NCBI RefSeq assembly: GCF_044324785.1
Contig: NZ_CP172127.1
Length of the DNA stretch: 64,000 nt
From: Escherichia coli
GTDB taxonomy: Bacteria > Pseudomonadota > Gammaproteobacteria > Enterobacterales > Enterobacteriaceae
Reading direction: 5' to 3' (one strand)
Shown here one piece after another: positions 37,928 to 62,819 of this stretch. The translations under genes and the position numbers were made by a program. The first letter of the stretch is position 1. Each line of letters opens with the position of its first letter. The notes under the pieces are model-generated. The model saw only the letters and a program-made list of their open reading frames with translations, was not told where the DNA came from and searched no databases.

Positions 37928-38314
37928 CTATAAAGGATTATCCATCTTAAAATCGTCGATATCGCCTGTCATTTTGAATAGATTGGTGTCATTCCAACGG
38001 CACAGTTGTCTAACCCGCATTAGATTTGAGTTGGCTCTGCGGATTATTGAGAAAGCATCTTCAACAGCAGTAATCACCGATTTTTCCCAATCTTGTGCTC
38101 GGGTAAAGGTGCTTTGTGAATAGCGATAATTGCCCTCACGGGGGAGGTAATGGCTGATCACCTGGTATTTGTCAGAATTCTTTTTAGGTTTAAACTCGTT
38201 GTAAACCCAGAAAATTTCGAGTTTTTTGTTTCTTTGCCTTACACGACAACCAAAATGACCTGGGTAGCCTTCAGAGTTTTTACCTCTATGTGCAACGTTG
38301 TTCAGCCAGAACAA
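37928..38314 (-). CDS. hypothetical protein (start uncertain)
   Basis: 128-aa AT-rich ORF between the RhuM gene and an IS3-family element. Confidence 0.35.
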   Translation of the reverse strand: MFWLNNVAHRGKNSEGYPGHFGCRVRQRNKKLEIFWVYNEFKPKKNSDKYQVISHYLPREGNYRYSQSTFTRAQDWEKSVITAVEDAFSIIRRANSNLMRVRQLCRWNDTNLFKMTGDIDDFKMDNPL

Positions 38315-38403
38315 GTCTGCAATTTTTTGTGCTATGTAGAAGTAGCGGAGCTGTTCTATTTCGGTTGATTTATGGGTGTAGTGTAGATATTGCTCTGATA
38401 TGG

Positions 38404-38604
38404 TTAAGGAAAAAGCATTGCGTCGTCTTGATTAACATTTGTGCTATTGACAATAAAGGTTTCCCAAATATTAATTTGTGTTTCTAGTCCTTTAAATGAT
38501 TTTGAGAAGGCTTCTATGTACTCAGATTGCGGTTGATTTCCCCCATTTAGTGCTGCACCAAATGTAGCTATCTGTTGTTCTAAAAATGAATGATTTTTGG
38601 TCAT
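38404..38604 (-). CDS. hypothetical small protein
   Basis: 67-aa ORF from MTKNHSFLEQQ...; the longer ORF-track version runs into the IS terminal repeat. Confidence 0.3.
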   Translation of the reverse strand: MTKNHSFLEQQIATFGAALNGGNQPQSEYIEAFSKSFKGLETQINIWETFIVNSTNVNQDDAMLFP

Positions 38605-38682
38605 TACATAATCCTCTGTGTGGTTGATACTGCGTATTTTCATGAAAGGAGATCACTCAATAACCCCCCTGTGTCAGCATAG

Positions 38683-39225
38683 TTGTCGCCTCAATTTTTT
38701 AAGGAGATAACAATGCCAGGACAACCAATACCAAATGAGCTCAAAGAAAAAGGACTGATATGGCTTTTGCCACCATACTGTTGGTCACACCGTCAGATAG
38801 CCCGGAAGCTGAAGATCAGTGCCTCAGTTGTATCAAAATGGAGATGTGAGTTAGTGGAGCAAGGACTTTTACCTGAAAATGAAAAGATTACCTCCGTTGA
38901 TGTTGAAGACTGGACACCGGAGCGTCGATTCTCAGTTGTTCTTGAGACGGCTACGCTGTCAGAAATGGAACTTGCTGATTATTGCCGACGCATGGGATTG
39001 TTTGTTGAACAGGTTAAAGAATGGCGGGCTATCTCAATTCAGGCGCATGAAAAGAAATTGACGGAAAATATCCGAACAGACAGGGCATTGCGTGACGCAA
39101 AAAATAAGTTACGAGAACTGGAGAAAGAGCTTAAGCGCAAAGATAAAGCTCTGGCGGAAGCAGCTGCCCTGCTTATATTAAGGGAAAAGTTCAATGCCCT
39201 CTGGGACAACAGCGAGGAAGACTGA
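38683..39225 (+). CDS. IS3-family transposase OrfA (HTH, leucine-zipper-like C-terminus)
   Basis: 180-aa ORF with HTH and coiled-coil (LRELEKELKRKDKALAEAAALLILREKF). Confidence 0.7.
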   Translation: MSPQFFKEITMPGQPIPNELKEKGLIWLLPPYCWSHRQIARKLKISASVVSKWRCELVEQGLLPENEKITSVDVEDWTPERRFSVVLETATLSEMELADYCRRMGLFVEQVKEWRAISIQAHEKKLTENIRTDRALRDAKNKLRELEKELKRKDKALAEAAALLILREKFNALWDNSEED

Positions 39226-40252
39226 CCCCTCTCCTGGAGCGGCATAAAATTATTTCTCTTGTCCGTGAGGCCGTCGCCAACGGCGCCCGGAAAGGTCAGG
39301 CTTGTAGGTGTATCGGTATTTCTATTCGGACACTTCAGCGCTGGACTAATGGCAACATCATCACCACGGACCGAAGATCCGATACTGTAAACAGCTCTCC
39401 CCGAAATAAGCTGTCAGAAGCGGAAAGATTGCGAATACTGGAGTTGTGCAACTCTCCAGAGTTTGCATCCTTGCCTCCAAATGTGATCGTACCAACTCTG
39501 GCAGACAGAGGTATTTATATTGCTTCTGAATCAAGTTTTTATCGTGTACTGAAATCAGCCAAGCAGTTGAAGAAACGATCCCGTGAATGCCAGTATAAAC
39601 TGGCCTGATGTACTCAGGGCCGTTGCACCGAATCAAGTCTGGAGTTGGGACATCAGCTATTTGCCGTCCTGGGTCAGAGGCCAGCATTTTTACCTCTATA
39701 TGATCGTCGATATTTACAGTCGCAAAATTATTGCTGCTGAGGTATTTGCCAGCGAATCTGGAAAACATGCAGCAGAACTACTCCAGCGTGCAGTATGGAA
39801 TGAAAAATGTTCATCCAACAATCTGGTACTCCATTCTGATAACGGTGGTCCCATGCGCAGTGACACGTTGTTGGCGAAAATGTATGCGCTTGGTGTGCTA
39901 AGTTCTTATTCCCGGCCAAGAGTCAGTAATGATAATCCTTACTCAGAATCTTTGTTCCGGACTCTCAAATATTGTCCCTGGTGGCCTGAGAACGGTTTTC
40001 GCACTATTGATGATGCCAGAGTATGGGTAAACCAGTTTTGTAAACTGGTACAACTTTGAACATAAGCACAGCGGGATCAAATACGTCACGCCAGCCGAGC
40101 GTCATCAAGGTAATGATATGAAAATACTGGCGGCCAGAAAAGCAGTATACCAGCTGGCACGCGAACAGCATCCTGAACGTTGGGGAAAGCATCTACGTAA
40201 CTGGGACTACATATCAGAAGTCTACCTGAATCCAGAAAAAGAGGCTGCATAA
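39226..40252 (+). pseudogene. IS3-family transposase OrfB (DDE integrase core), at least two frameshifts
   Basis: pieces in three frames: ...RTLQRWTNG.../...PNQVWSWDISYLPSW...HSDNGGPM...YSRPRVSNDNPYSESLFRTLK.../...NFEHKHSGIKYVTPAERHQ... Confidence 0.75.
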
Positions 40253-40328
40253 CGTAATTTTATTACAAAAGGCGACAACTACCTTGAAAAACGCCGTTAT
40301 TGAGTGATCTCCTTTCATGAAAATACGC

Positions 40329-40870
40329 ACCATGACCATACCCTCTGCAACCTGACCATCGTAGTCACGCAGCGTCAGTGAACCTCCGAACAACTGTTTT
40401 ACCCGGTACATCGCTGTTTCCGCTATCGAACGACGGTTATAATCTGTTGTCCATTTACACCGGGCATTACTTCCGGTCAGCCGCTGATTAGCCACTGCAC
40501 GGTTACGGTCTTCGTATTCACCGGGCTAGTAACCCGCACCTTTTCGGGAAGGGGTAAGCGCGCTGATTTTCTTACGCCTCAGTTCATCGTGACAGAGTCG
40601 GGGGTCGTAAGCCCCGTCTACCGCTGCAGCCATGATTTTTCTGTGAGTCTGTTGGAGAAGCCCCGGGAAGGCTTCTGAGTCCGTGACGTTGTTCAGCGAC
40701 AGGTCTGCACAGACAATTTCATGTGTGTTGCCATCAACAGACAGATGCGACGCCCCTCTTTGCCGTGCTTTTTGGCTTTCCTTTCGCCTTCCCCAAAGAC
40801 TTTTAGCCCGTTGGAATCAATCACGAGGTGTATGATTTCACCCCGGGTGGGGATTTATGTATAAGAAACA
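40329..40870 (-). pseudogene. IS5-family (IS903-like) transposase fragment, truncated by the IS3-family element
   Basis: minus-strand translation contains ...NRAVANQRLTGSNARCKWTTDYNRRSIAETAMYRVKQLFGGSLTLRDYDGQVAEGMVM and upstream frameshifted pieces; ends exactly at the IS3-family element boundary. Confidence 0.6.
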
Positions 40871-40959
40871 GCGTATTCGTGAGGGGTGAGCCATGAATAA
40901 AATCCCTTTTGAAGTATTAATCCACTCTGAAAATGCATTAATCTGCGCAAAGGAAATGG

Positions 40960-41305
40960 ACGCGTTATTAATTAAGTTAATTGATATTCCGGAAAGTGGC
41001 GATAAAACATATTCGATGACGGACAGGCGACAATGTGGTTATCTGTGCTGGCGTTTGGCAGACAGGCCGAAGCACTGGCCAGACACCAGAAAGGCGAACT
41101 GGTAAGCGTGGCAGGTAACATGCAGGTCAGCCAGTGGACAGGGCAGAACGGGAAAACGCGGCAGGGACGGCAGGTTATCGCAGACAGCGTAATCAATACT
41201 CAAACGGTGCGGCCAGGAGGAAGCAGACGCGAAACCACAGGTACACAGGGTAATCAGCCACCAACGGGAGGCGACGCCACTTACGGAGATGATATACCCT
41301 TATGA
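40960..41305 (+). pseudogene. single-stranded DNA-binding protein (plasmid/island-type ssb) remnant, frameshifted
   Basis: SSB-like C-terminal part ...AFGRQAEALARHQKGELVSVAGNMQVSQWTGQNGKTRQGRQVIADSVINTQ... ending in acidic tail GDDIPL; N-terminal part out of frame. Confidence 0.55.
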
Positions 41306-41322
41306 ATTAAGCGGGGCGCAAC

Positions 41323-41643
41323 ATGAACAACAGCACACTGAAGAGCCGGACAATAAGCGACGCGACAGCGGAAGAACTCGAGAGCAGGGGACTGTGGCGA
41401 CGTGCTGCCAGAAGGTGGCAGGATGTGATGATTACTCTTGAGAAAGACAGTCACAGACAGCTTGCAGTAATGAGAGCAAGGGAATGTATCAGGAAGGCAA
41501 AACGCCCGATACCTGAAAGCCGTATTGATATTCATACAGTCAGAAAGGCCGCAGACAGGACAATACAAAAAATGGGGCTACCGTCGCTTACTGATGAAAT
41601 ATGGCGCGATTACCCTGATAGCGTTAACGATGACGGTTATTAA
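41323..41643 (+). CDS. small island-encoded regulator-like protein (possibly PerC family)
   Basis: 106-aa ORF with motif ELESRGLWRRAARRWQDVM; family assignment is from memory only. Confidence 0.35.
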   Translation: MNNSTLKSRTISDATAEELESRGLWRRAARRWQDVMITLEKDSHRQLAVMRARECIRKAKRPIPESRIDIHTVRKAADRTIQKMGLPSLTDEIWRDYPDSVNDDGY

Positions 41644-41926: not shown

Positions 41927-42175
41927 ATGAATGCACGAAAGGCGGTACTGGCAGATAATCCGGAATTGATCCTGCGTTTGCTACAACTGAAATTTGACGA
42001 GACACTGTCGTACCCGCGCATTTCTGCACAGACCGGTGTCAGCAAAACCGCTATTTTTTCTCTGGTGAGGCGATTTCATCAGGTATTCACTGACGGGCAT
42101 CTTTCTGGTGAATATTCCTGCGTGCAACTGACCGGGCTCTTTTCCCGGGGCGATAATATTCAGCCCCGACAGTGA
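41927..42175 (+). CDS. hypothetical HTH-like protein
   Basis: 82-aa ORF from internal ATG with RBS-like AAAGGACA upstream. Confidence 0.3.
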   Translation: MNARKAVLADNPELILRLLQLKFDETLSYPRISAQTGVSKTAIFSLVRRFHQVFTDGHLSGEYSCVQLTGLFSRGDNIQPRQ

Positions 42176-42184
42176 CTCAGCCTG

Positions 42185-42440
42185 TAAAAACAGAGAAAAC
42201 CCGTCGGAACCGATTTTCACCAGAGTAAAAATGGAGACTTGTTCAGCAAACTCTTTTACCCGGAGCCTGTGTGGCCCAGATTGCACGAGAGTCTGGCATC
42301 AATGATAATGTTATTTTCAAATGGCTCAGACTCTGGCAAAACGAAGGGCGTGTTTCGCGGCGTCTTCCGGTAACAACCACTTCTGACGCAGGCGTTGAAT
42401 TATTACCTATGGAGATAACGCCGGATGAGCAGAAAGATCC
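42185..42440 (+). pseudogene. IS3-family transposase OrfA remnant (frameshifted, 3' deleted)
   Basis: pieces ...KTRRNRFSPE... and VAQIARESGINDNVIFKWLRLWQNEGR resemble IS3-family OrfA HTH regions; followed by unrelated sequence. Confidence 0.45.
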
Positions 42441-42978
42441 GATGATTCCCCTACCGCCAGCTTTTCGCCTGCGCCGGTATACGTTTCTTTATCTTTGCCC
42501 TGCATCACCCACAGGCTGGCTCCGCCGATAATGGCGTTTTGTGGTGCATCTTTCGCGTCAGCGTCGTAAGGCATCATGCCTACGCCGTAGTTGAATTTGG
42601 CGTACTCGCGAATGTTGGCAAGAGAACCGGAAGAGGCGGTGGTCATCGCGCAATCACCTCTATAGAACTTCTCGGTGGATTCATCCTTACGCCCGACGTA
42701 GATGAAGTCGCCCTTCTTGTTCATCTCCTCGAGCATGACGATGTGTTTCACCTGCTCCGGCTTGTTGAACTCCAGCACCGCGTCCGTGGCGTCAAAACCG
42801 TTGTTTTTGCTGGCAAACGGCAGACCGTTCCTGGCGCTAAAGTTTTCCAGTTGTATCCACCTCTTTGCCCATTTCCCCTTCCATAGAGTTCCAAAACGGA
42901 ATGGTCGTCACTGCCTGTGCATTGCCCATTAACGCCAGTCCGAGCACCAGTGATGAAGCTGTATAATGTAACGGTTTC
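42440..42978 (-). pseudogene. ugpB-like glycerol-3-phosphate ABC transporter substrate-binding protein remnant
   Basis: minus strand encodes [42 protein letters not shown] then frameshift joined to ...[49 protein letters not shown]...[18 protein letters not shown]; central part deleted and C-terminus truncated. Confidence 0.7.
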
Positions 42979-43735
42979 ATCGTTTATCTCTCTTGCTTGT
43001 TGTACCTGATGTGCAAATTCACTCGTTTTATGCTCGCGGGATTACATATCATGCCCGAATTGCAGAAAAATAACTTTTTATTACATGTGTAAGACAGTAA
43101 AACCTCAGAAAGATGACAGTGTGGTGCCGGCGCGGGTGAGGAAAAATGGAAGATGGGGAATGTATAAGCGGGAAAATAGGAGGGCCTGTGGATTGTAGAT
43201 AATGTGCTCATCGTTTTCATGCCGGATGAGACATAAACACTTTTATCTGAGCATTTCTATGTATTCGGACAGTTGTTCTTGGCATCCAATGGTGCAGGTT
43301 CTGTAGTGTGTGGTGGTAGCAATAGCCTCAGCTTCATTACAATATTTATTATCTCAAACATTCAAATGTCCTTGGCCCACTTTGATAGTCACTTTGTCGT
43401 GGTTATTATGTCTTTCCTTTTCCTAAAGCCCCATTATCTGTGCTGCAGCTTTCCCTCCATCAACGAACCAACAACCAGCAATGCCTGTCCCCCATAACAG
43501 CCCGGAAAATGGCACATTCTCAGATGATTTATCCCGCGAGCTATCCCGCCTACAGCTAATCGACCTGTTTAATACATCTTGACAGTCTGCTGGCAAGGTT
43601 ACCCTTCCCAATATTGTCCGTTTTTAACATATCTAATACGAGCCCCCATCAAATATGCTTCGTGTTCACTGTAAGTGACTAAAAGTGCTGTCTGCCCTGC
43701 CTCATGCAAAATATCACGAACTTCACGGCTCAGTC

Positions 43736-44237
43736 CTACCCTTGTTTTTTATCCAAGCTGGAAAATGGTTCATCTAGCAACAGGATATCTGGATTTGGAA
43801 CCAGTGACCTTGCAAGGGCAATACGTTGCTGCTGACCTCCTGAAAGTTCATGAGGATAGCTGTCTGAATAGTGGAATAAATCCACCATTTTCAACAGTTC
43901 TGTAACTCTGGTTCGCTGTACATCTCTCGGCAGTCTTCTCAGACCAAAGCCACGTTTTGTGAAACTGTAAGGTGGGGAAAGAGCGCATATTCCTGAAAGA
44001 CTATACCGACATGACATTTCTCCGGCGGAAAATGCATATCTGCGCTGGCCACACAATGCTGTGATACAAAAATTTCCCCTTGTTCAGGCGCTCAAAACCA
44101 GCTACAGCACGTAGTACTGTTGTTTTTCCACAACCTGATGTACCAAGCAGACATGCCAGTTCACCTTTACAGACTGACATACCCCCCGCCCCGCAATACA
44201 GGATATGGGCTATTGGGATAAACAACATGGACATCAT
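43736..44237 (-). pseudogene. ABC transporter ATP-binding protein remnant (frameshifted)
   Basis: Walker A GTSGCGKTT in one frame, signature LSGGQQQR and Walker B ILLLDEP in another. Confidence 0.7.
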
Positions 44238-44267
44238 TAATACATAAAGCTGTTTCTTCAGACATAA

Positions 44268-44868
44268 TCAATCCTCTGATTTCAGTCTTTCAGCTGGAAC
44301 AAACAAAATAACCGGAAATGTCCCTGCAAGAACAATCATTAAAGCAGAGATGGCCCCTTCTTCAAAAGTTCCACGGGCTGCTTCAGCATAAAGAAGTGTT
44401 ACTGGCAGTTCTTTCATCGCATCAGTGAAAACCAGCAGGGCACTGCTCACCAGAGCAACACAGGAAAGTGAACCCGAACAAAAGTTCCTGTACCATTTTC
44501 TCCCAGCAGACGTGAGGCTTGTTCCAGTGACTCTGGTATACGTCCCAGCCGGACATCAAGTGCGCCGATGGCTATTGCCTGAAATCGCATCGTACAGCAA
44601 ATCACCAACAGGACACCGACAGACATTAAAGGTAACCCCCTGTAATCCAGTAGTTCCGCCAGCCAGCGGTCATTTAGGGAGTCAGAAAACCAATCGCCAG
44701 AATCGTGCCTGGAAAGGCATAACCCAGCGACGCCACTCTCATCACACCGCGCCTGAACAGTGGCATAGCGTTGAGGAATTCCGGGCATTCCAGACTACGA
44801 GCAGACTGACAAAAATTACGACAAAGCGTTGAAGGAAGCCAGCGCGCGGACTGACAGGACTTTACCAT
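44268..44868 (-). pseudogene. ABC transporter permease remnant (frameshifted)
   Basis: three consecutive ORF pieces with permease-like hydrophobic segments split across frames. Confidence 0.55.
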
Positions 44869-44918
44869 AAAAACACAGGCTAACCGCGCCTGCGTTTTTA
44901 ATGACGGATGAAACAGAA

Positions 44919-46499
44919 TCAGGTGCCGATTATGCCGCCGTCGGCTTTTACGATAACGACAGTTGAGGAGCGCGGACGACCAGCCTTATCGCCGTCAGGC
45001 CAGCTTGATACTGCCGTCGGATGCTGCGGATCGCTAAGCCCTTCGCTTGGCTCGCCAGGGTGCTGGATGTTAATAAACAGCGTCCGGTTATCCGGAGTGA
45101 ACGCGATGCCGGTGATTTCGCAGCCGCGCGGGCCGGTCAGGAAGCGGCGGAACTCATTGGTACCGGGGATCGTCGCCACCATCTGGTTGTTGCCCATGCC
45201 TTTGTAATCTTTAATATTTATGGTTGATGACGACACGTCGGTCTGGATCCATAGCACGCCGCGGTGATCAAAGCTCAGGCCATCGGCGCTGCCGAATTCC
45301 GCACCCTTCATGCTGCCTTTGGTTTCCAGTTTGTCTGTATCGGTGCGACCGCCCATCACAAGAATATCCCAGGCAAACTGCAGCGCGGTCGGGTCACCGT
45401 TATGCTCCAACCAGTGAATGATGTGGCCGTAAACGTTTTTGGCGCGCGGGTTGGCCGCATCCACTGGCGCTTTTCCTTCCTTACCGCGATCGCTGTTGTT
45501 GGTGAGCGTGCAGTAAACGCTGCCGGCGTGATATGGATCGACCGCAATCCACTCCGGGCGGTCCATTTTAGTGGCCCCCACGGCGTCTGCCGCCAGACGG
45601 GTTTTAATCAACAGGTCGCCCTGGTTTTCAAACCCTTTACTGGCGTCGAGCCCATTTTGTCCGAACACCAGCGGTAGCCACTCGCCTTTGCCGTCGTCGT
45701 TAAATTTCGCCACGTACAGAGTGCCTTTTTCCAGCAGGTGCATGTTGGCTTTGCGATCCTGCGGGTTGAATTTTCCTTCCGAGACAAATTTATATATGTA
45801 TTCGAATTTCTGGTCATCGCCCATATAGACCACAACGCGGTTATCCGGGGCAATTGTCACCGCTGCGCCTTCGTGTTTGATGCGACCAAGCGCGGTGTGC
45901 TTGCGCGGCACTGAATGCGGATCGTATGGATCGATTTCCACCACCCAGCCGAAGCGGTTCGGCTCGTTCGGCGTGGCGTCGACGCTGAACCTTTTATCCA
46001 CTTCGTTCCAGCGGTAAGAGTCGTCGCTCCCGCTGATACCGTAACGTTTTTCCAGCGGGTTCATCTCTGCTTTTTTTACGAAAATATCGGACCAGTTCTC
46101 TTCACACGTCAGATAGGTGCCCCACGGCGTAAATCCGTTGGCACAGTTCTGCATGGTGCCGAGAATGATTTCGCCTTTCGGATCGTCAACTGTTTGCATC
46201 AGTGGGTTATGCAGCGCCGGACCGGTGATTTTCATCGGCGTGTTAACGGTGATGCGGCGTGCGAACGATGACGGGCGCACCACTTCCCAGCCCAGGGGCA
46301 CTTTTTTTACTTCAATGACCGACACGCCCATCGCGTTCTGGCCTTTAAGAGCTTTATCGGCGCTCCAGTTGGCATCGCCATCTTTAAACAGTAGACCGTT
46401 ATCGATGTATTCATGGTTTATGGCAAGCAGGCCGTGATCGGAGCTGTTCCCTGATGCGCCGCGCGATAAATGCACTCTATCTTGTGCGATAAATGGCAT
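44919..46499 (-). pseudogene. PhoX-like (DUF839) phosphatase, N-terminally truncated at the prophage junction
   Basis: 526-aa ORF lacking a signal peptide and N-terminal region; homology starts near ...GLLAINHEY...; upstream end abuts the invertase end of the prophage. Confidence 0.5.
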
Positions 46500-46529
46500 C
46501 CACGCGGCGTTTCATTATTTGAAAAAGAA

Positions 46530-47102
46530 TTACATTTCAGGTTGCGTTATGACAGTCCCAACAGGGTGGTAGCGGTAGATCGTTGACAGTCCAATATCAT
46601 AGATAATTGCCAGCCGCTTTCTGTCATACCCTTTCTGGAGCAATCTTGCGATCTGCTCATGCTGCTCCTTCGTCAGTTTCGGGCGACGTCCTCCAACTCT
46701 TCCTTGTGCTCGCGCAGCAGCCAGTCCTGCCAGCGTGCGCTCAACTATCAGTTCACGCTCCATTTCTGCCAGTGCACCCATCATATGAAAAAAGAACCTT
46801 CCCATCGGAGTGCTGGTATCGATTGAATCCGTCAGACTGCGAAAATTGACACCTTTTGCGCGTAGCTCTTCTGTGAGAGCAATGAGGTGTTTCATTCTTC
46901 TACCCAACCGATCCAGCTTCCAGACCACCAATGTATCCCCTCTTTTAAGGCACTTTAAAGCGCGTTTCAGGCCTGGTCGTTCCGACTTGGTTCCGCTCAT
47001 TTTGTCCTCAAAAATCTGTTCACATCCTGCGCACATTAATGCATTGCGTTGCAAATCTGTGTTTTGGTCATTTGTTGACACACGTATGTAGCCAATCAGC
47101 AT
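46530..47102 (-). CDS. site-specific DNA invertase (serine recombinase, Gin/Pin/Cin/Hin family)
   Basis: 190-aa product MLIGYIRVSTNDQNTDLQ... with catalytic Ser in YIRVST and C-terminal HTH; adjacent to inverted tail-fibre cassettes. Confidence 0.9.
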   Translation of the reverse strand: MLIGYIRVSTNDQNTDLQRNALMCAGCEQIFEDKMSGTKSERPGLKRALKCLKRGDTLVVWKLDRLGRRMKHLIALTEELRAKGVNFRSLTDSIDTSTPMGRFFFHMMGALAEMERELIVERTLAGLAAARAQGRVGGRRPKLTKEQHEQIARLLQKGYDRKRLAIIYDIGLSTIYRYHPVGTVITQPEM

Positions 47103-47156
47103 TAAAAATACTCCCTTTTGAGTGGTTAAAGTACTGAGATAATGTGGGGAGGATTT

Positions 47157-47182
47157 GAGAGATAAACGTTGGTTTAGGAGAA
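47157..47182. promoter_or_regulatory. candidate gix/cix-like crossover site 1
   Basis: GAGAGATAAACG-TT-GGTTTAGGAGAA; right half matches the gix half-site GGTTTTGGATAA at 10 of 12 positions; lies at the start of cassette C. Confidence 0.5.
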
Positions 47183-47686
47183 GGCTCGGCGCTACCCGTT
47201 GGTGTGCCTGTTCCGTGGCCCACCGCCACACCGCCAGCAGGCTGGTTAAAGTGCGACGGGCGCGCCTTTACAAAAGAACAATATCCTGTTCTGGCCAGAG
47301 TCTACCCGACCCTCCGTCTTCCCGATTTACGCGGTGAGTTTATCCGTGGATGGGACGACGGGCGCAAAGTTGATACAGGACGTAAGTTGCTGTCCGCACA
47401 AGGGGCAACGCTGTTAAGAACAGCAATGCTGGATTATTATAACCAGGACACTACGGGAACCTCGGGGATAGTCGGCATGGGATTCAACAATGAAGATTCC
47501 ATTACAGACCTTCGTGAGGGCAGCTTTAAAATGCCGGACGGGACAACATTCAGCGATCCTGTCGTGGCAATGTCAGACAATGGTATGCAGGCTACTATTC
47601 TGACCTCTATCAGAAGCGGGTATGCGAAGGGTATCACTGTCAGACCCCGTAGCATTGCACTTAATTACATTGTGAGGGCAGTTTAA
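47162..47686 (+). CDS. tail-fibre C-terminal (receptor-binding) cassette C, promoterless, inverted relative to the tail-fibre gene
   Basis: reading frame open from 47159 (no ATG) encoding NVGLGEGSALPVGVPVPWPTATPPAGW...RGWDDGRK...NYIVRAV, homologous to the C-terminus of the 642-aa tail fibre. Confidence 0.7.
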   Translation: MNVGLGEGSALPVGVPVPWPTATPPAGWLKCDGRAFTKEQYPVLARVYPTLRLPDLRGEFIRGWDDGRKVDTGRKLLSAQGATLLRTAMLDYYNQDTTGTSGIVGMGFNNEDSITDLREGSFKMPDGTTFSDPVVAMSDNGMQATILTSIRSGYAKGITVRPRSIALNYIVRAV

Positions 47687-48300
47687 TGAGTAACACTGCA
47701 GTTCTGGATGAAAACGGTATCGCCACTGTAGCGGGCGAGATCACTGTATATCACTATGACGAGGAAACCCGGGAATACACCTCATCCTCTGTGGAGTATC
47801 TCGCCCTTGGGGTGGGTACTCCGGCACATTCGTGCGCCGATGCACCGCCGGAGGCAATTTCGGGTTACGTGGTTTGCCGGACTGCCACGCTGAACGGGTG
47901 GGAGCATGTGCCTGATCACCGCGGCGAGACGGTATACAGCACGGAGAACGGTAACCCCGTTCTGATTACCCAACCGGGTGATTACCCGGCGGACACCACC
48001 ACAAAACAGCCGGCCACGCCATGGGATACCTGGAACGGTGAGGCGTGGGTAACCGATACTGAACGGCAGCGAGCCGCAGAACTGGAGGTTGCCAGACAGC
48101 AACGCCAGCAACGGGTGAAACAGGCGATGGCGTCCGTCGATCTTATCAACCTCAAACTGCGTGCTGGTCGCAGTCTGACACCAGAAGAAACGGCAAAACT
48201 GAACGCCGTGCTGGATTATATCGACGAGCTGAACGCACTGGATATCAGCACGGCACCTGAAATCAGCTGGCCGGAAGCGCCACTGGCACTTGCCAGCTGA
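47686..48300 (+). CDS. tail-fibre assembly protein (Tfa/U-type chaperone)
   Basis: 204-aa ORF overlapping the end of cassette C (ATGA), in the usual position of a tail-fibre chaperone. Confidence 0.7.
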   Translation: MSNTAVLDENGIATVAGEITVYHYDEETREYTSSSVEYLALGVGTPAHSCADAPPEAISGYVVCRTATLNGWEHVPDHRGETVYSTENGNPVLITQPGDYPADTTTKQPATPWDTWNGEAWVTDTERQRAAELEVARQQRQQRVKQAMASVDLINLKLRAGRSLTPEETAKLNAVLDYIDELNALDISTAPEISWPEAPLALAS

Positions 48301-48306
48301 ACGGTA

Positions 48307-48780
48307 TCACGCCGCCCTCACGATATAGTTAAACGCGATATTGCGGGGGCGGGTTATGTTAAAGAATGCTCCGTTTAATTCGGCTTTTGCGCGACTGTTT
48401 GTTCCACCCAGAATTGCGTACCACAAATAATCGCTACGGTAATTCCCCGCAAACACCTTATCGCCGCCATAGTCAATATTATTTCCGTTACTCATGTACG
48501 AGATATCCAGCGAAGAATCGTTATCGTCATGACCGCCGACCAGTGTACCTTTCTGCCATGAAAGCAACTTACGCCCCTCGTCAATCTTGCGCCCGTCGTC
48601 CCATCCACGGATAAACTCACCGCGTAAATCGGGAAGACGGAGGGTCGGGTAGACTCTGGCCAGAACAGGATATTGTTCTTTGGTGAACGTAGCTCCGTTG
48701 CACTGTAACCAGCCTGCTGGCGGTGTGGCGGTGGGCCACGGAACAGGCACACCAACAGGCAATGCAGAGCCTTCCCCCAA
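48307..48780 (-). CDS. tail-fibre C-terminal cassette B (alternative receptor-binding domain)
   Basis: 157-aa ORF (TTG start) GEGSALPVGVPVPWPTATPPAGWLQCNGATF...NYIVRAA; frame open upstream through crossover site 2. Confidence 0.65.
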   Translation of the reverse strand: MGEGSALPVGVPVPWPTATPPAGWLQCNGATFTKEQYPVLARVYPTLRLPDLRGEFIRGWDDGRKIDEGRKLLSWQKGTLVGGHDDNDSSLDISYMSNGNNIDYGGDKVFAGNYRSDYLWYAILGGTNSRAKAELNGAFFNITRPRNIAFNYIVRAA

Positions 48781-48795
48781 ACCAACGTTTTTATG
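48770..48795. promoter_or_regulatory. candidate gix/cix-like crossover site 2
   Basis: reverse complement CATAAAAACG-TT-GGTTTGGGGGAAGG, inverted relative to site 1; lies between the tail-fibre stop and cassette B. Confidence 0.5.
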
Positions 48796-50719
48796 CGGCC
48801 CTTACGATGTAATTAAACGCAACATTGCGGGGGCGCATTGATATCCATGCCCCGGTAAAATTATCCTCCGCTGTCCTTTGAATACCCGTTATAGAGTTAT
48901 CTGCTGATGCAGGAACATAATCGCTATTATTTCCTGCTTTAGGATTAGCTGGGTTTCCAACGGTTATAACAGAATCAGCAGTAGCAAAAGCGATACCTAC
49001 TTTGACATTAGTATTCAGATCGTAACCGTAATAATCCTGCAAAGCTGTACGAATAAATGTTGCAGCCTGACCACTTAGCAATGAACGCCCCGTATCAACT
49101 TTGCGCCCGTCGTCCCATCCACGGATAAACTCACCGCGCAAATCGGGAAGACGGAGGGTCGGGTAGACTCTGGCCAGAACAGGATATTGTTCTTTTGTAA
49201 AGGCGCGCCCGTCACACTTTAACCAGCCTGCTGGCGGTGTGGCGGTGGGCCATGGAACAGGCACACCAACAGGCAGTGCAGAGCCTTCCCCCAAACCAAG
49301 GTAATTGAGGACATCTTTTATACTGCCCTTAGCGATAATAGCGCGACCAATAGCTGTAAGGGTTGCCAGCGCTGCGCGGTCTGCTCCGGTAAAATAAGGC
49401 AACCGATCTGCTGCAGTGGCAAGTCCTGCCAGAGCAGTGAGCGTGGCATCTGCCGGTTGTTTTCCGTTTGCCAGATCGTATGCAGCCTTGACCGCTTTCG
49501 GTGTGGCGGCCAGTATTTCAGACGTGCTGTTGATGGCACTGCTCAATTGTATGGTGCCTTTTGCCGTCAGCGAGGCAGCAGGCACTCCCGTTATCTGACT
49601 CCACGGGTGAGTGTGGCTGACGGGCGCCTTGCCGGCTGCAAGGTCGTATGCAGCCTTGACCGCCTTCGGCGTGGCAGCCTCAGTTTCTGATTGACTGTCC
49701 GTGGCGCTGCTCAGTTGTACGGTGCCTTTTGCCGTCAGCGAGGCAGCAGGCACTCCCGTTATCTGACTCCACGGGTGAGTGTGGCTGACGGGGGCCTTGC
49801 CGGCAGCCAGGTCATATGCAGCCTTGACGGCCTTTGGTGTGGCGGCCAGCGTTTCAGAGGTGCTGTTGGTGGCACTGCTCAGTTGTACGATCCCTTTACG
49901 GGTCGTTGTTGCATCCTGGGCTGTGTATTTTCCCCGGGCCAGATCATACGCGATTTTCACAGCCTTCGGCGTGGCAGCCTCAGTTTCTGATTGACTGTCC
50001 GTGGCGCTGCTCAGTTGTACGGTGCCTTTTGCCGTCAGCGAGGCAGCAGGCACTCCCGTTATCTGACTCCACGGGTGAGTGTGGCTGACGGGGGCCTTGC
50101 CGGCAGCTAGGTCATATGCAGCCTTGACGGCCTTTGGTGTGGCGGCCAGCGTTTCAGAGGTGCTGTTGGTGGCACTGCTCAGTTGTACGATCCCTTTACG
50201 GGTCGTTGTTGCATCCTGGGCTGTGTATTTTCCCCGGGCCAGATCATACGCGATTTTCACAGCCTTCGGCGTGGCAGCCTCAGTTTCTGATTGACTGTCC
50301 GTGGCACTGCTCAGCTGTACGGTGCCTTTTGCCGTCAGCGAGGCAGCAGGCACTCCCGTTATCTGACTCCACGGGTGAGTGTGACTGACGGGTGCCTTGC
50401 CGGCTGCAAGGTCGTATGCAGCCTTGACGGCTTTTGGTGTGGCGGCCAGCGTTTCAGAGGTGCTGTTGGTGGCACTGCTCAGTTGGGTGAACCCCTTAGC
50501 TGTCAGTGTCGCGTCCGGGTGGTTACGGGAACGTACGTGTTCAGCCAGTGACTGTGCGGCTTCCTCCGTTTTTTTCTTCAGCCATTTCGTCCTGTTTGCC
50601 AGTTGCCGGGGGGCTCGATTTGATATCCCGTCAGCACCACCCAGAACCGGATCTGATGTCTCCAGTTGATAGATTTTTTCTTCCCACTTTTCTGTTTCAT
50701 TCAGGTTTCCCATAATCAA
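48791..50719 (-). CDS. phage tail fibre protein with repeat-containing shaft and C-terminal domain A
   Basis: 642-aa ORF; central about 100-aa tandem repeats (SETLAATPKAVKAAYDLAAGK...); C-terminus GLGEGSALPVGVPVPWPT...NYIVRAA. Confidence 0.85.
   Translation of the reverse strand: MIMGNLNETEKWEEKIYQLETSDPVLGGADGISNRAPRQLANRTKWLKKKTEEAAQSLAEHVRSRNHPDATLTAKGFTQLSSATNSTSETLAATPKAVKAAYDLAAGKAPVSHTHPWSQITGVPAASLTAKGTVQLSSATDSQSETEAATPKAVKIAYDLARGKYTAQDATTTRKGIVQLSSATNSTSETLAATPKAVKAAYDLAAGKAPVSHTHPWSQITGVPAASLTAKGTVQLSSATDSQSETEAATPKAVKIAYDLARGKYTAQDATTTRKGIVQLSSATNSTSETLAATPKAVKAAYDLAAGKAPVSHTHPWSQITGVPAASLTAKGTVQLSSATDSQSETEAATPKAVKAAYDLAAGKAPVSHTHPWSQITGVPAASLTAKGTIQLSSAINSTSEILAATPKAVKAAYDLANGKQPADATLTALAGLATAADRLPYFTGADRAALATLTAIGRAIIAKGSIKDVLNYLGLGEGSALPVGVPVPWPTATPPAGWLKCDGRAFTKEQYPVLARVYPTLRLPDLRGEFIRGWDDGRKVDTGRSLLSGQAATFIRTALQDYYGYDLNTNVKVGIAFATADSVITVGNPANPKAGNNSDYVPASADNSITGIQRTAEDNFTGAWISMRPRNVAFNYIVRAA
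49284..49309. promoter_or_regulatory. candidate crossover site 3 inside the tail-fibre gene
   Basis: reverse complement CTCAATTACC-TT-GGTTTGGGGGAAGG encoding NYLGLGEG at the constant/variable junction; same orientation as site 2. Confidence 0.4.
49390..50520. repeat. 300-bp tandem repeats (about 3.5 copies) inside the tail-fibre gene
   Basis: identical 71-aa and 84-aa antisense ORFs recur 300 bp apart (49779/50079 and 49834/50134); protein shows repeated ...SSATNSTSETLAATPKAVKAAYDLAAGKAPVSHTHPWSQITGVPAASLTAKGTVQLSSATDSQSETEAATPKAVK... Confidence 0.85.
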
Positions 50720-51306
50720 CTGCTCCCGTGGTTATAACTGCCATCATGGATGGCGGTATTGTTATAGCGAATGGCCACAGACTGATACTCCAGGCTGGCC
50801 AGATGGCAGCGGGCCGGTGCAAATGCAGCGAGCGTCTGACGCAGCATCGCGGCCTGATCGTTAGTAATGGGCTGTTTCAGAATAACGCGATAAACCGCCC
50901 AGGCGGCTGCATCTCCATGAACAAACAGTCCGTTATAGCTGCGATTGCCGTCGTAACTGAGACGACCTGTGCCTTCAATCAGATCCACTTCACCAAAGCC
51001 AAAACGGCGGATAACTTCCCGGATTGACCACGGCGTCCCTTTATACCGGTGTAGTTCGATGGCTGCTTTTATAAGCATGCGGCGAACATCGTCCGATTCC
51101 GCCAGCTCCCAGCCATCGCCAGACAGTGAGAACTGCTCGCCCAGCCATGGCAGCGCAGAACTGTCGACGATATCGACGAGAAAGACCATCAGTACGCTCA
51201 GGTCGATGTTATCCAGCCGCCCTGCCAGTCTTCCCAGCGTCCTGAGACTGATATCACCCTCAAGCGGTGGCGGGAGTTGTAATGGCTCAGTCATCAGACA
51301 CTCCAC
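50716..51306 (-). CDS. phage baseplate/tail protein (P2 gpI-like)
   Basis: 196-aa ORF directly upstream of the tail fibre, overlapping the J-like gene. Confidence 0.6.
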   Translation of the reverse strand: MECLMTEPLQLPPPLEGDISLRTLGRLAGRLDNIDLSVLMVFLVDIVDSSALPWLGEQFSLSGDGWELAESDDVRRMLIKAAIELHRYKGTPWSIREVIRRFGFGEVDLIEGTGRLSYDGNRSYNGLFVHGDAAAWAVYRVILKQPITNDQAAMLRQTLAAFAPARCHLASLEYQSVAIRYNNTAIHDGSYNHGSS

Positions 51307-52390
51307 TCATGTTAAGTGTGATCGCCGTACAGTTTGCCCATTCGTTTTCTGCCACCACCCTCAGTGCCGGTGTCACCAGTTCAACCTGGTACACCCCGGA
51401 AACGGACAATGCACTGATAATCTGGCTGGGGACAATATCACGCCCCAGCGTGGCGGCACGTGATGCCACCCAGTTCTGTATGGCGCTGTTAGCGGCATCT
51501 TTTACAGACCTGGCATCCTGATCACGATAGATCGTAATCCTGGCTTCAATGGTGTAATCCACCTTCACTGGTGTTTTAGCCCGCACTGTATCAGTGAGTG
51601 GCCTGACTTTCTCATCAGAGCAGAAACTCTCTACCAGCGTGAGAACACCGCCGTCCGGCAGACCGGTACTGAGCAGCGGATACAGATCTACGGTCCCGGG
51701 AACCGGGGAAAGCACAGCAACATCGACAATGTTGGGATGGGCCTGCATGGCATGAAAGCGGTATGCGCCACGGCTTCCGGCATTGGTGAATGACTCCGGG
51801 GCCAGCCTGATACGCTCCCGGAGCCTGTCATCGTCTTCCTGTTCTGAACCGCCGGAACTGGCCGTCAGATTGCTCACCAGCAGGTCGACGTTATCAATCT
51901 CATCGAGTAACTGACTGACCTGCGCAGGTTGCCAGCCGTTACCAGCGGTACCGGGTTCGGTACAGGTGGACGTGACATTGACCAGCAGCAATCCGGCCTT
52001 CAGTACCACATCTGTATCGGTGGCAAAAATAACGCTGTCGGAAGCGCTGACGCGGGTGCCTGCCGGGATCAGCACATCAATGGTCAGTGCCTCATCCACA
52101 GAGAACTGAAGTGTGGTGGTGGCAGGCTGCGCGGCAAGGCGGTATACACCAACCAGTTCTCCGAGGTAATCAATCATCGGCTCTCGTGAAAAGGCGACCA
52201 GATTCTGCTTTGCTGCCTCCTGTACCGCAACCCTGACCAGCATTTCGCGATAGGCCCACAGATCAATCAGCAGACGTTCTGCCTGTGCCGGGTACAGCGT
52301 TTTGCCGGTATCCGCTTCATACTTCGCAATCATTTCTGCCGTGATTTTGTCGGCATCGCGTTCAATAAAATCGGGTTCTGTCAGCGCCAT
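51287..52390 (-). CDS. phage baseplate J-like protein
   Basis: 367-aa ORF in the conserved V-W-J-I-H order. Confidence 0.7.
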   Translation of the reverse strand: MALTEPDFIERDADKITAEMIAKYEADTGKTLYPAQAERLLIDLWAYREMLVRVAVQEAAKQNLVAFSREPMIDYLGELVGVYRLAAQPATTTLQFSVDEALTIDVLIPAGTRVSASDSVIFATDTDVVLKAGLLLVNVTSTCTEPGTAGNGWQPAQVSQLLDEIDNVDLLVSNLTASSGGSEQEDDDRLRERIRLAPESFTNAGSRGAYRFHAMQAHPNIVDVAVLSPVPGTVDLYPLLSTGLPDGGVLTLVESFCSDEKVRPLTDTVRAKTPVKVDYTIEARITIYRDQDARSVKDAANSAIQNWVASRAATLGRDIVPSQIISALSVSGVYQVELVTPALRVVAENEWANCTAITLNMSGVSDD

Positions 52391-52728
52391 AGCAACTCCT
52401 GAGTCCGGGTCTGTCCGTCTGAGCCTTTCCAGCTCACCCGGAGCGTAAGATGTTCGCCGTCGACGGCGGGTTTAACTGACATAAGCTGGCAGCGGGGCTC
52501 CCAGCGTCGGATGGCATCGACGGATTCGCGCACCACATGCGGAATGGCCCGGTCTACAGGCCAGTCGATATAAAGATGCAGATTGCTGCCGAACTCCGGG
52601 CGATGCGGGTCGCTGCCGCGGGGAGTCCGCAGGATAATTTGAATCGCCTGCCGGATATCATCCAGCCCCCGGACAATTTCGCCGGGAGCCTGCAGGGTCG
52701 GTTGCCAGAATACTGAGGTTGTTTTCAT
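52381..52728 (-). CDS. phage baseplate wedge protein (GPW/gp25 family)
   Basis: 115-aa ORF overlapping the J-like gene. Confidence 0.7.
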   Translation of the reverse strand: MKTTSVFWQPTLQAPGEIVRGLDDIRQAIQIILRTPRGSDPHRPEFGSNLHLYIDWPVDRAIPHVVRESVDAIRRWEPRCQLMSVKPAVDGEHLTLRVSWKGSDGQTRTQELLWR

Positions 52729-52782
52729 GGGGGCAGTATTGCCCCCGTGCGGGAACGCTGATATTAAAGGCGTTTAAAAAGC

Positions 52783-53379
52783 TCAGTGGGAGTGGTGGCT
52801 GGAGTTTTCGCCATCAGACAACATACTGCCCGTGGCATGGGCATTCCCTTTAATCTCGATATTGCCATGGATGGTCGCGGTAACACCTTCACCACCAGAA
52901 CCCGCCATGCCTCCTTCGTAAATCAGCTTACCCCTGACACGCAGATCTCCGGTAAGTTCGGTTTCCGGTGCGTCAATCGTGGCTTTCTGTGTTTTCAATA
53001 CCACATCAGCACCACACTCAATGACAATATGCTCAATGCCGCCCCGGATGATCAGAGTGTGCGTCTTCCGGTTGTAGCTGTACTCTGCACCATCAGCAAA
53101 CCGGGTTCCCCGGATATTTTTGTCACTGAACGGTGGTTTATCGACGTCTGAATACACCGCGCCCAGAATAACACCATCCTCGCCGTTGGCATCGAGCAGC
53201 ACCTCAACCTGCTCCCCCACGTCAGGGAGCCAGTAATCTTTGTTATCCTGGGTATTGCGCTGCAGCACGTTAAGCCAGTTTGTGCGCAGGTTATCGCATT
53301 CAGGCAGACGAACGCGGGCCTGAACCCTGTCGGCATCAACGGCACTGACCGTACCGACCTGACGAGTGACACCAGTCAT
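52783..53379 (-). CDS. phage baseplate assembly protein V (spike)
   Basis: 198-aa ORF with OB-fold-like N-terminus and glycine-rich C-terminus. Confidence 0.65.
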   Translation of the reverse strand: MTGVTRQVGTVSAVDADRVQARVRLPECDNLRTNWLNVLQRNTQDNKDYWLPDVGEQVEVLLDANGEDGVILGAVYSDVDKPPFSDKNIRGTRFADGAEYSYNRKTHTLIIRGGIEHIVIECGADVVLKTQKATIDAPETELTGDLRVRGKLIYEGGMAGSGGEGVTATIHGNIEIKGNAHATGSMLSDGENSSHHSH

Positions 53380-54548
53380 TTTTTCTTCTCTCTTATTACT
53401 GTGGACGTGCTGCCGTCCGGTTTATAGATGGTCAGCATCCGGGTTTTGCCGATTTTTTTACCTTTCTTCGCCTTGCCCTGTGTGATCGGCCCCCGTGCCA
53501 CTTCCAGCTCTGTGGTGTAGCCGCTGTTACGGTCAAACGCATGGCGGGCAGTGGTTATGAGCCATGGCCCGGATAACTGCCCAAAACCCACCAGTTCAAT
53601 TTTGTTGCCTGCTGTCAGTTGAGGTGTTCCCGTCAGCGTCAGGGAGCCGTTCTGCTGGTATTCGTTATGTCTGGCCAGTGCTGAATCCGCTTTAATCCGG
53701 GCACTGTCCGGGTCGCTGACGCGGCTGTTAACTTTAAGTGAGTCAGCGCTGGTAACCTTACCACCTTTGAGCTTTTTGTCGCTTTCACGGGTACCACCAT
53801 CAGCTTCGTAGACGATCAGTTTTTTACTGCTGCTTTTCTGGTGTTTTACCTTTGCAGATTTATAGACCCGGTTGATGGTGTCACGCAGGGAAAAGCGGGC
53901 CACATCCTGCGGTTTTAACTGCCTGACCGGCTCCTGACTGCGCAGTGTGGCCAGATGAGAAAAAATCAGCTGGTCACTGACCACTTTCACTGCATAACCA
54001 TACTCGCTGGCCAGCCGGCGCAGAAAACCCACGTCGGTTTCAGCATACTGGGTCACCCGGTCGATTCTGATGGACTCAATGCTGCCCACCAGTTTCAGCC
54101 GGTGCTTTCTGGCAATCCGCCCCGCAACAGCTGCCAGCGTGGTGTTCTCAAAACCACGACTGGTTTTAGTCCGCAGGGCACTGTTAACCGAGGTGGCCAC
54201 CCCACGGATAGAAACAACGGAAGCGGGCGAACTCACTTCGATCTCGTCTATAGAGAACGTACCGCAGGACAGCAGCTTCTCGTCCTGATAGCCCATTTTC
54301 AGCGTCAGCGTGTCACCCTTGCCCGGATACCACTTATCCAGCCAGCGGCCATCGGTGTCGTCCAGCTCCACCTCAATGGTATCGGACTCATTTTTGATGT
54401 TATCGCTCCAGGTCACACGGGTGACATAAGGCGCGATATCAGAGGTGATGTTTTTCTGCAGATACCACAGAGTGAACACCGGTGTCAGCACATCGCTGAC
54501 GCCGGTTAACGCTGATGTGACTTGCGCAGTGCTGTTTATCTCAGCCAT
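53376..54548 (-). CDS. phage tail protein (P2 gpD / Mu P-like, late control D family)
   Basis: 390-aa ORF between the X/U-like and V-like genes. Confidence 0.65.
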   Translation of the reverse strand: MAEINSTAQVTSALTGVSDVLTPVFTLWYLQKNITSDIAPYVTRVTWSDNIKNESDTIEVELDDTDGRWLDKWYPGKGDTLTLKMGYQDEKLLSCGTFSIDEIEVSSPASVVSIRGVATSVNSALRTKTSRGFENTTLAAVAGRIARKHRLKLVGSIESIRIDRVTQYAETDVGFLRRLASEYGYAVKVVSDQLIFSHLATLRSQEPVRQLKPQDVARFSLRDTINRVYKSAKVKHQKSSSKKLIVYEADGGTRESDKKLKGGKVTSADSLKVNSRVSDPDSARIKADSALARHNEYQQNGSLTLTGTPQLTAGNKIELVGFGQLSGPWLITTARHAFDRNSGYTTELEVARGPITQGKAKKGKKIGKTRMLTIYKPDGSTSTVIREKKK

Positions 54549-54751
54549 GGGGCAATATCCTCTTCTGTACGGGCTTCTTCAGCCTCAATCACCGGGATCA
54601 GTAACAACAGCCCGGAGGGCAGCACCGGCGTGATGGCCACGTGCGGATTGGCGGCAATAATCCGGGGATAGCCCAGCGGGTCACCGTAGTACTGCCATGC
54701 CAGCGAATCCCAGCGCTCTCCGTCACGGGTAACATGTTCAAGAAACATCAC
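54536..54751 (-). CDS. phage tail protein X-like (small LysM-like tail protein)
   Basis: 71-aa ORF overlapping neighbours in the tail operon. Confidence 0.55.
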   Translation of the reverse strand: MMFLEHVTRDGERWDSLAWQYYGDPLGYPRIIAANPHVAITPVLPSGLLLLIPVIEAEEARTEEDIAPWLR

Positions 54752-55632
54752 ACACTCCTCGTCAGTATTCTGGCGGCCATTGCACTTAATCCCGGAGACA
54801 TGCGGTTGAATGCTGTTCCGACGGCGTTAAGCTGCCCGGAAACGGTATCCAGAGCACCTGCAATATTTCTTTTGTCCACACCACTCAGCGCAGACTGTGC
54901 CTGCTGTACATACGTGGCTGCTTCGCTGGCTGTTCTGGCCAGACTGATGGCATCGGGCATGGATTCAGAGAGTGCGTTAAACGCCGGAACACTTTTCCCC
55001 AGAGCCCCGGAGATATTACCCAGTCCGCTCATCAGCCCCGGCACACGGGTCAGTGCGACAACGGGGTTATCCTTCATTTTCTGTGTCACCCGAACGGCGC
55101 TGATAGTGGTCTGGAGTACAGACTGCGCCTGTTTCGCATAGTTGACGCCGTTGCGGATGAACTGCGCCACCCCGGAAGGTGAAGGAATGGCACCGGAGAC
55201 CGCCCCGACACCCGGGAGCTTCGTGCGTATTGCCGGTGGTTGCAGAGGATTTTTCGGGTCACCGGTGTATTCCCGGAGAGACACGGTGGCACTGACAGCC
55301 AGCACGTTGCCGGTACTGTCAGTCTGCTCGCTGGTTGCAGTCACATCGGTAATCACGAACCAGCCGCGATAGTCACCGTTGCCGAAGACCAGCGCCAGTG
55401 CCTGATGGGCTTTCATGGCTGTTCGCAGTCTCGCCAGCTCCACATCGGGTACACAATAATGCTGATGGAAAACCAGAGTTATCTGGATTTCGTCCAGCCT
55501 GTCGCCGACGAACTGCAGGCCAGGCTTACCCCCGATGCGGGCATGCTCCGCATAATCGACGCCGAACGTGGCCTCGAAGCCGTCCCAGTAGGTAATCAGC
55601 TCAAACTCAATATCACCCAGTACGGCAAACAT
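54748..55632 (-). CDS. phage tail protein (gpU-like N-terminal domain with C-terminal extension)
   Basis: 294-aa ORF immediately after the tape measure gene; ...GDYRGWFVITDV... resembles gpU. Confidence 0.55.
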   Translation of the reverse strand: MFAVLGDIEFELITYWDGFEATFGVDYAEHARIGGKPGLQFVGDRLDEIQITLVFHQHYCVPDVELARLRTAMKAHQALALVFGNGDYRGWFVITDVTATSEQTDSTGNVLAVSATVSLREYTGDPKNPLQPPAIRTKLPGVGAVSGAIPSPSGVAQFIRNGVNYAKQAQSVLQTTISAVRVTQKMKDNPVVALTRVPGLMSGLGNISGALGKSVPAFNALSESMPDAISLARTASEAATYVQQAQSALSGVDKRNIAGALDTVSGQLNAVGTAFNRMSPGLSAMAARILTRSV

Positions 55633-58844: not shown

Positions 58845-58919
58845 AGTGGTTAACCTCCGGGGAAGGTGAAAAGACGTGAGGGGATAACGCAGAACAGCCG
58901 CTACTGGCGGCTGTCTGTA

Positions 58920-59177
58920 CTATGATTTGTCGCCGTACTCGCTTTTGATTTGCTCTTCAGCCTGCTCCAGCCACATCTCCAGATCGTCAGTATCGAGGGC
59001 ATCAATCTCCCCCGGCTGAAACCGGAACCATCTCGCCAGCAGCCCCTGCGCCTGCGTCAGCGCCCTGGTTGCTCTCACCCATCCCCGTGATGAGCTGAAA
59101 TCGTTTCTGTAACTGCAGGTAATCAGCCAGATCCATATTGTCGAGATCTTCCGGGAGAAGACCAGTACTGCGGGCAA
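58920..59177 (-). CDS. tail assembly chaperone frameshift extension (GT/E'-like), probable programmed frameshift product
   Basis: 85-aa ORF overlapping the 3' part of the 111-aa chaperone ORF in another frame. Confidence 0.4.
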   Translation of the reverse strand: MPAVLVFSRKISTIWIWLITCSYRNDFSSSRGWVRATRALTQAQGLLARWFRFQPGEIDALDTDDLEMWLEQAEEQIKSEYGDKS

Positions 59178-59716: not shown

Positions 59717-59718
59717 CG

Positions 59719-62818: not shown

Positions 62819-62819
62819 G

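Follow-up and report, generated by a model that had tools for sequence, protein, structure and literature searches.

We regard the broken IS3-family transposase gene in the Escherichia coli sequence analyzed here (64,000 nucleotides of contig NZ_CP172127.1, hereafter the window) as part of a three-layer nest of insertion sequences (IS) that was afterwards scrambled through recombination, which is the best explanation of the locus and a quite probable one. A broken IS3-family IS lies between two 34-bp end pieces of ISEc12 (IS21 family), beside the stump of an IS903-like element (Table 1), and the PGAP annotation already marks the locus as pseudogenes. The feature itself is routine debris of known IS families; its modestly interesting part is the targeting behavior of the IS3-family element, whose clade has an apparent and, in the data presented here, well supported preference for IS21-family terminal repeats.

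Table 1 Coordinates of the features discussed in the text
Feature	Position	Strand	Basis
tRNA-Phe gene	15328-15403		
Left arm: ISEc12 outer terminal repeat (istA-proximal 'A' end), tip leftward, 33 nt plus one C	38631..38664	+	100% identical to L008 3967-4000
IS3-family IS proper, 1632 bp, pseudogene	38665..40296	+	tips matched to multi-copy relatives; plasmid copies align only to query positions 35-1666
orfA, intact, 170 aa, HTH protein	38713..39225	+	ORF list; weak HTH_Tnp_1 match
Likely programmed -1 frameshift site, GAA AAG, slip on A AAG	39184..39189	+	predicted slip position; continuous OrfAB in intact copies
Inactivating frameshift 1, extra T (AAAC-T-GGCC)	39601	+	alignment to L002 and L003; translation
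Inactivating frameshift 2, extra A (AACC-A-GT)	40034	+	alignment to L002 and L003; translation
Homologous-recombination crossover interval, two parental IS copies	40035..40116	.	mosaic match pattern
Right arm: second copy of the ISEc12 'A' terminal repeat, tip rightward	40297..40329	-	complete ISEc12 ends at the identical junction in ECCNB12-2
IS903-like (IS5 family) relic, corresponding to IS903B nt ~405-942	40330..40850	-	87% identity, 16 gap positions

The sequence-only reading of this locus had described a 1.7-kb IS with perfect terminal inverted repeats (TIRs) of its own. A repeat search of 38000-41500 reported one inverted repeat, 100% complementary over 34 nt (38631-38664/40296-40329), and no such 34-nt match is expected by chance; the perfect repeat is thus real, with its length and start revised from 33 bp at 38632. 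It does not form the termini of the IS3-family element. Both arms, the outer tips of which begin TGCGTATT..., are identical at 34/34 positions to the istA-proximal terminal repeat of ISEc12, as found adjoining PGAP-annotated istA/istB in strain ECCNB12-2 (L008 3967-4000), and the TG...CA tips are those of ISEc12 and not of the IS3-family element. The other ('B') end of ISEc12, TGCGTATTACCGTGAAGGAGATCGGTGAGTAA, has about 8 mismatches to the 'A' end, and ISEc12 holds extra subterminal copies of its own terminal repeat. Beyond the two arms, the window contains no ISEc12 sequence, with istA, istB, the second end and the subterminal repeats all absent; in place of the two different TIRs with repeated units and the istA/istB genes of a complete IS21-family element, there are two solo outer repeats of the same end.

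The boundaries of the IS3-family element were defined through its relatives, for which a protein-guided scan located more than 500 encoding loci. In the multi-copy genomes of Pseudomonas corrugata, Desulfoluna limicola and Cupriavidus necator, the region of homology opens with CCCCC[TG][GC]TGTCAG... and closes with ...TTGA[AC]AAAC[GA]CCG, that is, at the inner tips of the window's arms, and most copies measure 1.63-1.69 kb, with a few of up to 1.79 kb. Target site duplications (TSDs) of 4 bp flank the Desulfoluna copies (TTCG, CATT, ACGT, GGAA), the Cupriavidus copies (ATGC, TCCA) and several single-copy loci of relatives; none were seen at the P. corrugata copies. The element proper in the window thus runs from CCCCCTGTGTCAG... 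to ...TTGAAAAACGCCG, and carries imperfect inverted repeats at 38665-38690 (CCCCCTGTGTCAGCATAGTTGTCGCC) and 40271-40296 that match at 18/26 positions by manual count. Its tips, CCCCCTGTG... and ...AAACGCCG, depart from the TG...CA norm of the IS3 family in that they open with a C-run and reach TG only at position 6-7. Elements of the IS3 family are generally about 1.2-1.5 kb in length, and the window element, at 1.63 kb, is longer. The short TSDs (3-5 bp) of the family are present in the relatives and in simple insertions in E. coli described below, and absent from the window copy.

The coding content agrees with an IS3-family assignment. The nearest named families, at ~50% amino acid identity, are ISPsy31 and ISSpu6 (NCBI family names), which resemble this element in the orfA/orfB organization read through a programmed -1 frameshift, the rve (DDE) domain, the 4-bp TSD and the imperfect inverted repeats. 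PGAP gives the element no name beyond 'IS3 family transposase'. A predicted slip at GAA AAG yields a 512-aa OrfAB in the window copy once it is repaired, as it does in intact copies, which PGAP labels 'programmed frameshift'. These intact copies, each 1695 bp long including the arms and 97.1% identical to the window copy, reside on plasmid pMRY16-002_1 (L002) and on the chromosome of strain 9 (L003). The IS3-family transposase gene proposed from sequence was borne out on the intact OrfB, which matches NCBIfam transpos_IS3 (NF033516) at 170.3 bits (cutoff 160) and Pfam PF00665 rve at E = 5e-16, with rve_3 also found. OrfA of the window differs from that of an intact copy by one amino acid, S8N.

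In the window, orfB consists of three out-of-frame, rve-type pieces, and its damage relative to the intact copies amounts to exactly two 1-bp insertions (Table 1), in agreement with the two frameshifts beyond the programmed one that had been proposed. Removal of both extra bases restores a stop-free OrfAB with 12 amino acid differences from that of L002. The unrepaired OrfAB terminates at about residue 298, upstream of the rve domain, so that the window copy is unable to transpose by itself, as had been anticipated; since its own inverted repeats and orfA are intact, complementation in trans is conceivable. The probability that the two frameshifts are artifacts of sequencing or assembly, and the copy otherwise active, is practically negligible: both changes are single-base insertions, which speaks for such artifacts, but the identical bases occur in independent complete genomes. 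Two of these (H1 and H2) show 100% identity to the window across 1699 bp, both frameshifts are common to the structurally different L007 lineage, and PGAP marks frameshifts in several assemblies. The recurrence of the same two insertions in independent assemblies identifies them as mutations.

Next to the right arm lies the IS903-like relic. It shares with IS903B, in addition to the nucleotide identity given in Table 1, the C-terminal transposase motif YNRRSIAETAMYRVKQLFGG, and is unlike IS903B in being a gapped fragment with frameshifts, internal stops and no inverted repeats. Both ends of the element, and with them the 18-bp terminal repeats (GGCTTTGTTGAATAAATC) and 9-bp TSD of an IS903, are gone from the window, together with ~400 bp on the N-terminal side and the last 115 bp. 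PGAP annotates a frameshifted, incomplete IS5-family transposase, and the C-terminal ORF matches NF033579 (IS5-family) at 46.7 bits; this falls under the whole-protein cutoff, as the scan covered no more than a fragment. The alignment to IS903B stops near 40850, short of the right limit of 40870 originally given. Strain ECCNB12-2 provides a rationale for the junction itself: it carries a complete ISEc12 with istA and istB exactly at the position of the window's right junction, the last 34 bp of which correspond to window 40296-40329, and which is flanked by an 8-bp TSD, CCATGACC, of IS903-like sequence (L008 1412-1419/4001-4008). Beyond this ISEc12, the IS903-like tail persists with one end included, and it is this 115-bp tail that is absent from the window. 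Given an ISEc12 with a TSD at the same junction, the break in the IS903-like element appears to have been made by ISEc12 and not by the IS3-family element; the nested scar originally proposed holds insofar as the unit abuts the C-terminal side of a truncated IS903-like transposase, and fails as to which element broke it.

The left flank of the unit reads ...GTTGATAC and its right flank CCATGACC..., and on comparing them (...GATAC and CCATG...) no target duplication, including one of 3-5 bp, was seen around 38631/40329. At the left junction there are six Cs instead of five, which renders the original TSD there unreadable. Moreover, the arms around the element vary from copy to copy: the window has A...A', L002 has A...B', L003 has B...A', and pUMNK88 (L009) has C...D', a pair of unrelated IS21-like arms, all around cores that are ~97% identical. 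Together, these data make it extremely unlikely that a single 1.7-kb IS3-family IS with its own perfect 33/34-bp TIRs entered the IS903-like element and acquired its frameshifts later. Such an insertion would account for an inverted repeat that opens with TG and closes with CA, as in IS3-family ends, and for the element abutting the IS903-like relic, but it is at odds with the missing TSD, a left flank without IS903 sequence, the identity of the arms to an ISEc12 end, the exchange of arms around a near-constant core, the termination of relatives at the inner tips, and the presence of ISEc12 alone, with an 8-bp TSD, at the same junction.

Simple insertions separate the element from its arms directly. 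In L196 the arrangement is B32, the IS, then GTAA and the istB-side interior of ISEc12, and in L198 it is A33, the IS, then ATAA and the istA-side interior, each with a 4-bp TSD. Similarly, copy 2 of strain XDL (L197) is bounded by TTAT on both sides and adjoins A' and the IS903 relic, which is the window's right junction, yet with an intact IS and the ISEc12 body retained. These arrangements bear on the possibility that the 33-bp arms are native outer ends of the IS3 clade which ISEc12 shares or has acquired, without any targeted insertion. Relatives down to about 54% amino acid identity, in Salmonella and Vibrio, are likewise bracketed by such arms, as would be expected of native ends; nevertheless, we consider this reading decidedly unlikely, because L196 and L198 have their 4-bp TSDs around the inner core within otherwise continuous ISEc12 ends, because near-identical cores occur with non-homologous arm types while distant relatives are armless, and because the arm repeat recurs subterminally in ISEc12, in the manner of IS21-family TIRs (PMC10122671).

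The window copy is a mosaic of two IS copies, that is, a recombinant rather than the simple nested insertion first proposed. In a column-by-column comparison, positions 38665-40034 match an L007-type pseudogene, which has the same left junction of hypothetical gene and A arm, except for a patch near 38955-39225, and positions 40117-40296 are identical to the intact XDL copy 2, which has the same A'/IS903 junction, with 13 sites unlike L007. This switch from an L007-type to an XDL-type match places the crossover in the interval between (Table 1). We infer the following order of events. ISEc12 would first have inserted into an IS903-like element; the 1.63-kb IS3-family IS would then have entered ISEc12 terminal repeats immediately inward of the outermost 33-bp repeat and 9 nt beyond a GATC; and homologous recombination would finally have fused two such copies. 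One parent would have been an already frameshifted copy that adjoined an ISEc12 'A' end located upstream of the mobI-linked hypothetical gene, and the other an intact copy beside the 'A' end of an ISEc12 sitting in the IS903-like relic. Recombination between copies in two ISEc12 A ends would explain identical inverted arms, the missing TSD and the loss of the ISEc12 body and the IS903 tail, which may have been deleted by the exchange or moved elsewhere; the residue would be two inverted 'A' arms only, mimicking a perfect 34-bp TIR.

Parental-type arrangements occur in other strains. XDL copy 1 has the appearance of a reciprocal-type recombinant that crossed over at another point, and L197 2991-8808 places the ISEc12 body of XDL between two inverted IS3-type copies. 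This ISEc12 has a chimeric left end, in which A-side subterminal repeats are combined with B-side ones, and one R2 unit is missing, a further rearrangement suggesting that the history is more complex than one crossover. Among 5,426 complete E. coli genomes, the left junction (hypothetical gene...GATAC/TGCG) is found in 71 and the right junction in 20, ~13 of them window-type and 7 XDL-type, so that the window feature as such is present in about 13-20. No empty site joining the window's two flanks occurs in this collection, where the flanks are found separately, and the exact parental chromosome was not encountered; the order of events is accordingly a reconstruction. L007-type copies also carry a 47-bp MITE-like insert in orfA (TGTCACGAACGG...CCGTCGTTGACA; L007 5931-5982, at about window 38955), flanked by a 5-bp duplication, CTGTC, and absent in the window. 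Window-type copies in PK8275 and others are ~50 bp longer, probably through the same insert.

The nest is part of a chromosomal island. Window positions 1-15300 are conserved E. coli chromosome (dsbD, groL, aspA and others), and the tRNA-Phe gene is followed by an island with a type I restriction-modification system, RhuM, mobI, ssb, perC and IS66 debris, with P2-like tail genes occupying 46452-64000. A small hypothetical gene (WP_012311738.1, 38404-38604, minus strand) lies 26 bp from the left arm with its native upstream region replaced, and an in-frame ATG within the ISEc12 arm lengthens its ORF to 38643 (38404-38643, minus strand). On the other side, a 98-aa Ssb-like ORF (41009-41305, plus strand) is followed by perC- and proQ/finO-like genes, a group of genes of the type seen in plasmid or ICE leading regions, left stranded within the island. 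Compared with the otherwise near-identical island of strain 1517k (NZ_CP054388.1), window 42053-46451 lacks two blocks, and PGAP calls mostly IS66-family genes in the 1517k stretch that is missing. The island sits at a tRNA-Phe beside dsbD-groL in the window, and at a tRNA-Phe beside yqgA-speC in 1517k.

Arm-arm units devoid of the IS, here termed shells, occur elsewhere. A 62-bp shell of ISEc12 B and A' ends adjoins an Alw26I-family methyltransferase gene with a 5-bp duplication, CCTGG, and is present in about 540-600/5,426 complete E. coli genomes (loci L183, E. coli Nissle, near locus position 600; L184; L003 3001-4695; L129/L145/L151); strain HH35 has the empty site, and in some strains an IS3-type element lies inside the shell, in either orientation. 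The shell is without 3 nt (TAA) that the occupied forms retain, and therefore resembles the product of a nearly precise excision. A second shell at another locus (70 bp; L185 1499-1568, strain B1.H1.1) has a central GGGG, which corresponds to terminal bases of the IS3-type element and resembles an excision footprint. The duplications differ in length, with 8 bp for ISEc12 in the IS903-like element (L008) and 5 bp for the shell (L183), which may reflect a variable TSD length or a different mobilizing enzyme.

Because arms flank the element on both sides, we considered TSD-less insertion at the center of an arm-arm MITE as the primary route, and discarded it: it is contradicted by the simple insertions with 4-bp TSDs in full ISEc12 ends, and the 62-bp shell lacks the TAA kept by occupied units. 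A related possibility is that the arm-IS-arm' unit is a non-autonomous, passenger-carrying MITE of IS21 type that was moved to the window as a block by the IstA/IstB proteins of ISEc12. At the shell locus, both a B-IS-A' unit and the 62-bp B + A' shell are flanked by the CCTGG duplication and one strain is empty, which implies that something with ISEc12 ends transposed there. Block mobilization may therefore apply to the CCTGG locus. For the window it is very unlikely and was rejected, as the copy is without a TSD, carries the A end on either side, owes its right junction to a full ISEc12 insertion and has an interior pieced together from two copies; most other units are also without TSDs and have arms mixed from different IS21-type elements.

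The element repeatedly takes the same position within IS21-type ends. In copies from E. coli, metagenomes, Salmonella, Citrobacter, Vibrio and Photorhabdus, 16/19 distinct left flanks and 7/13 right flanks have a GATC of an IS21-type repeat 9 nt (±1) ahead of the IS tip; one further right flank has the GATC mutated to GAAC, and two others are the interior sides of simple insertions. By comparison, distant relatives had the tip at this position in 0/45. TIRs of the IS21 family are composed of repeated units, L1/L2 and R1/R2 (PMC10122671), and the IS either lies immediately internal to L1/R1 or directly follows the second unit. The enterobacterial/Vibrio clade is located almost only inside IS21-type terminal repeats. 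We put at about even the chance that this clade is a dedicated parasite of IS21-family elements that recognizes the units, inserts 9 nt past GATC, splits the TIR and leaves chimeras and shells behind. Insertion would then take place between or just inside the repeated terminal units, which IstA may bind in ISEc12 by analogy with structural work on the IS21 family, and would split the TIR of the host IS; recombination or nearly precise excision could subsequently give rise to arm-IS-arm' chimeras and arm-arm shells of 62-70 bp. The basis of target recognition is likewise inferred, and by eye the IS21-type target bears no resemblance to the inverted repeats of the IS itself. A tblastn search for istA/istB next to metagenomic copies returned only one unrelated adjacent ISEc12. 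One metagenome contig (L175 1-1880) contains a distant IS21-like element, with an IstA 53% identical to that of ISEc12, the tip of which directly touches the left tip of an IS3-type relative; here the geometry is opposite, with the IS outside the TIR tip.

Comparable target choices are known in other systems. IS4321 and IS5075 (IS110/IS1111 family) enter the 38-bp TIRs of Tn21-family transposons at a constant position and, like the clade described here, use the terminal repeat of a foreign transposon as their preferred target and disrupt that end; they differ in having DEDD enzymes and no TSD, as opposed to a DDE enzyme of IS3 type, a 4-bp TSD and another target family. Within the IS3 family, IS1397 and ISKpn1 target REP/BIME palindromes and IS911 inserts next to sequences resembling inverted repeats, which are likewise sequence- or structure-specific choices, whereas the target here is a repeated terminal unit of the IS21 family with the junction 9 nt past GATC. 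In the literature searched outside ISfinder, covering ISEc12, ISPsy31/ISSpu6 and IS21 together with MITEs or target specificity, the association is not described.

For annotation, these results illustrate that element boundaries are not proven by a perfect TG...CA inverted repeat on either side of a transposase gene, as the repeats in the window are those of a different IS, and the element proper falls 67 bp short of the unit with 34-bp arms. For genome evolution, they present these IS copies as mobile stretches of homology through which the pheU/pheV islands of E. coli are reshuffled; the window, L007 and XDL arrangements all derive from the same loci by recombination. Should the targeting be confirmed, it would constitute a case, not found described, of a DDE IS3-family element selecting IS21-family terminal repeats, and would offer a handle on target choice by IS3-type elements and on how IS populations limit one another.
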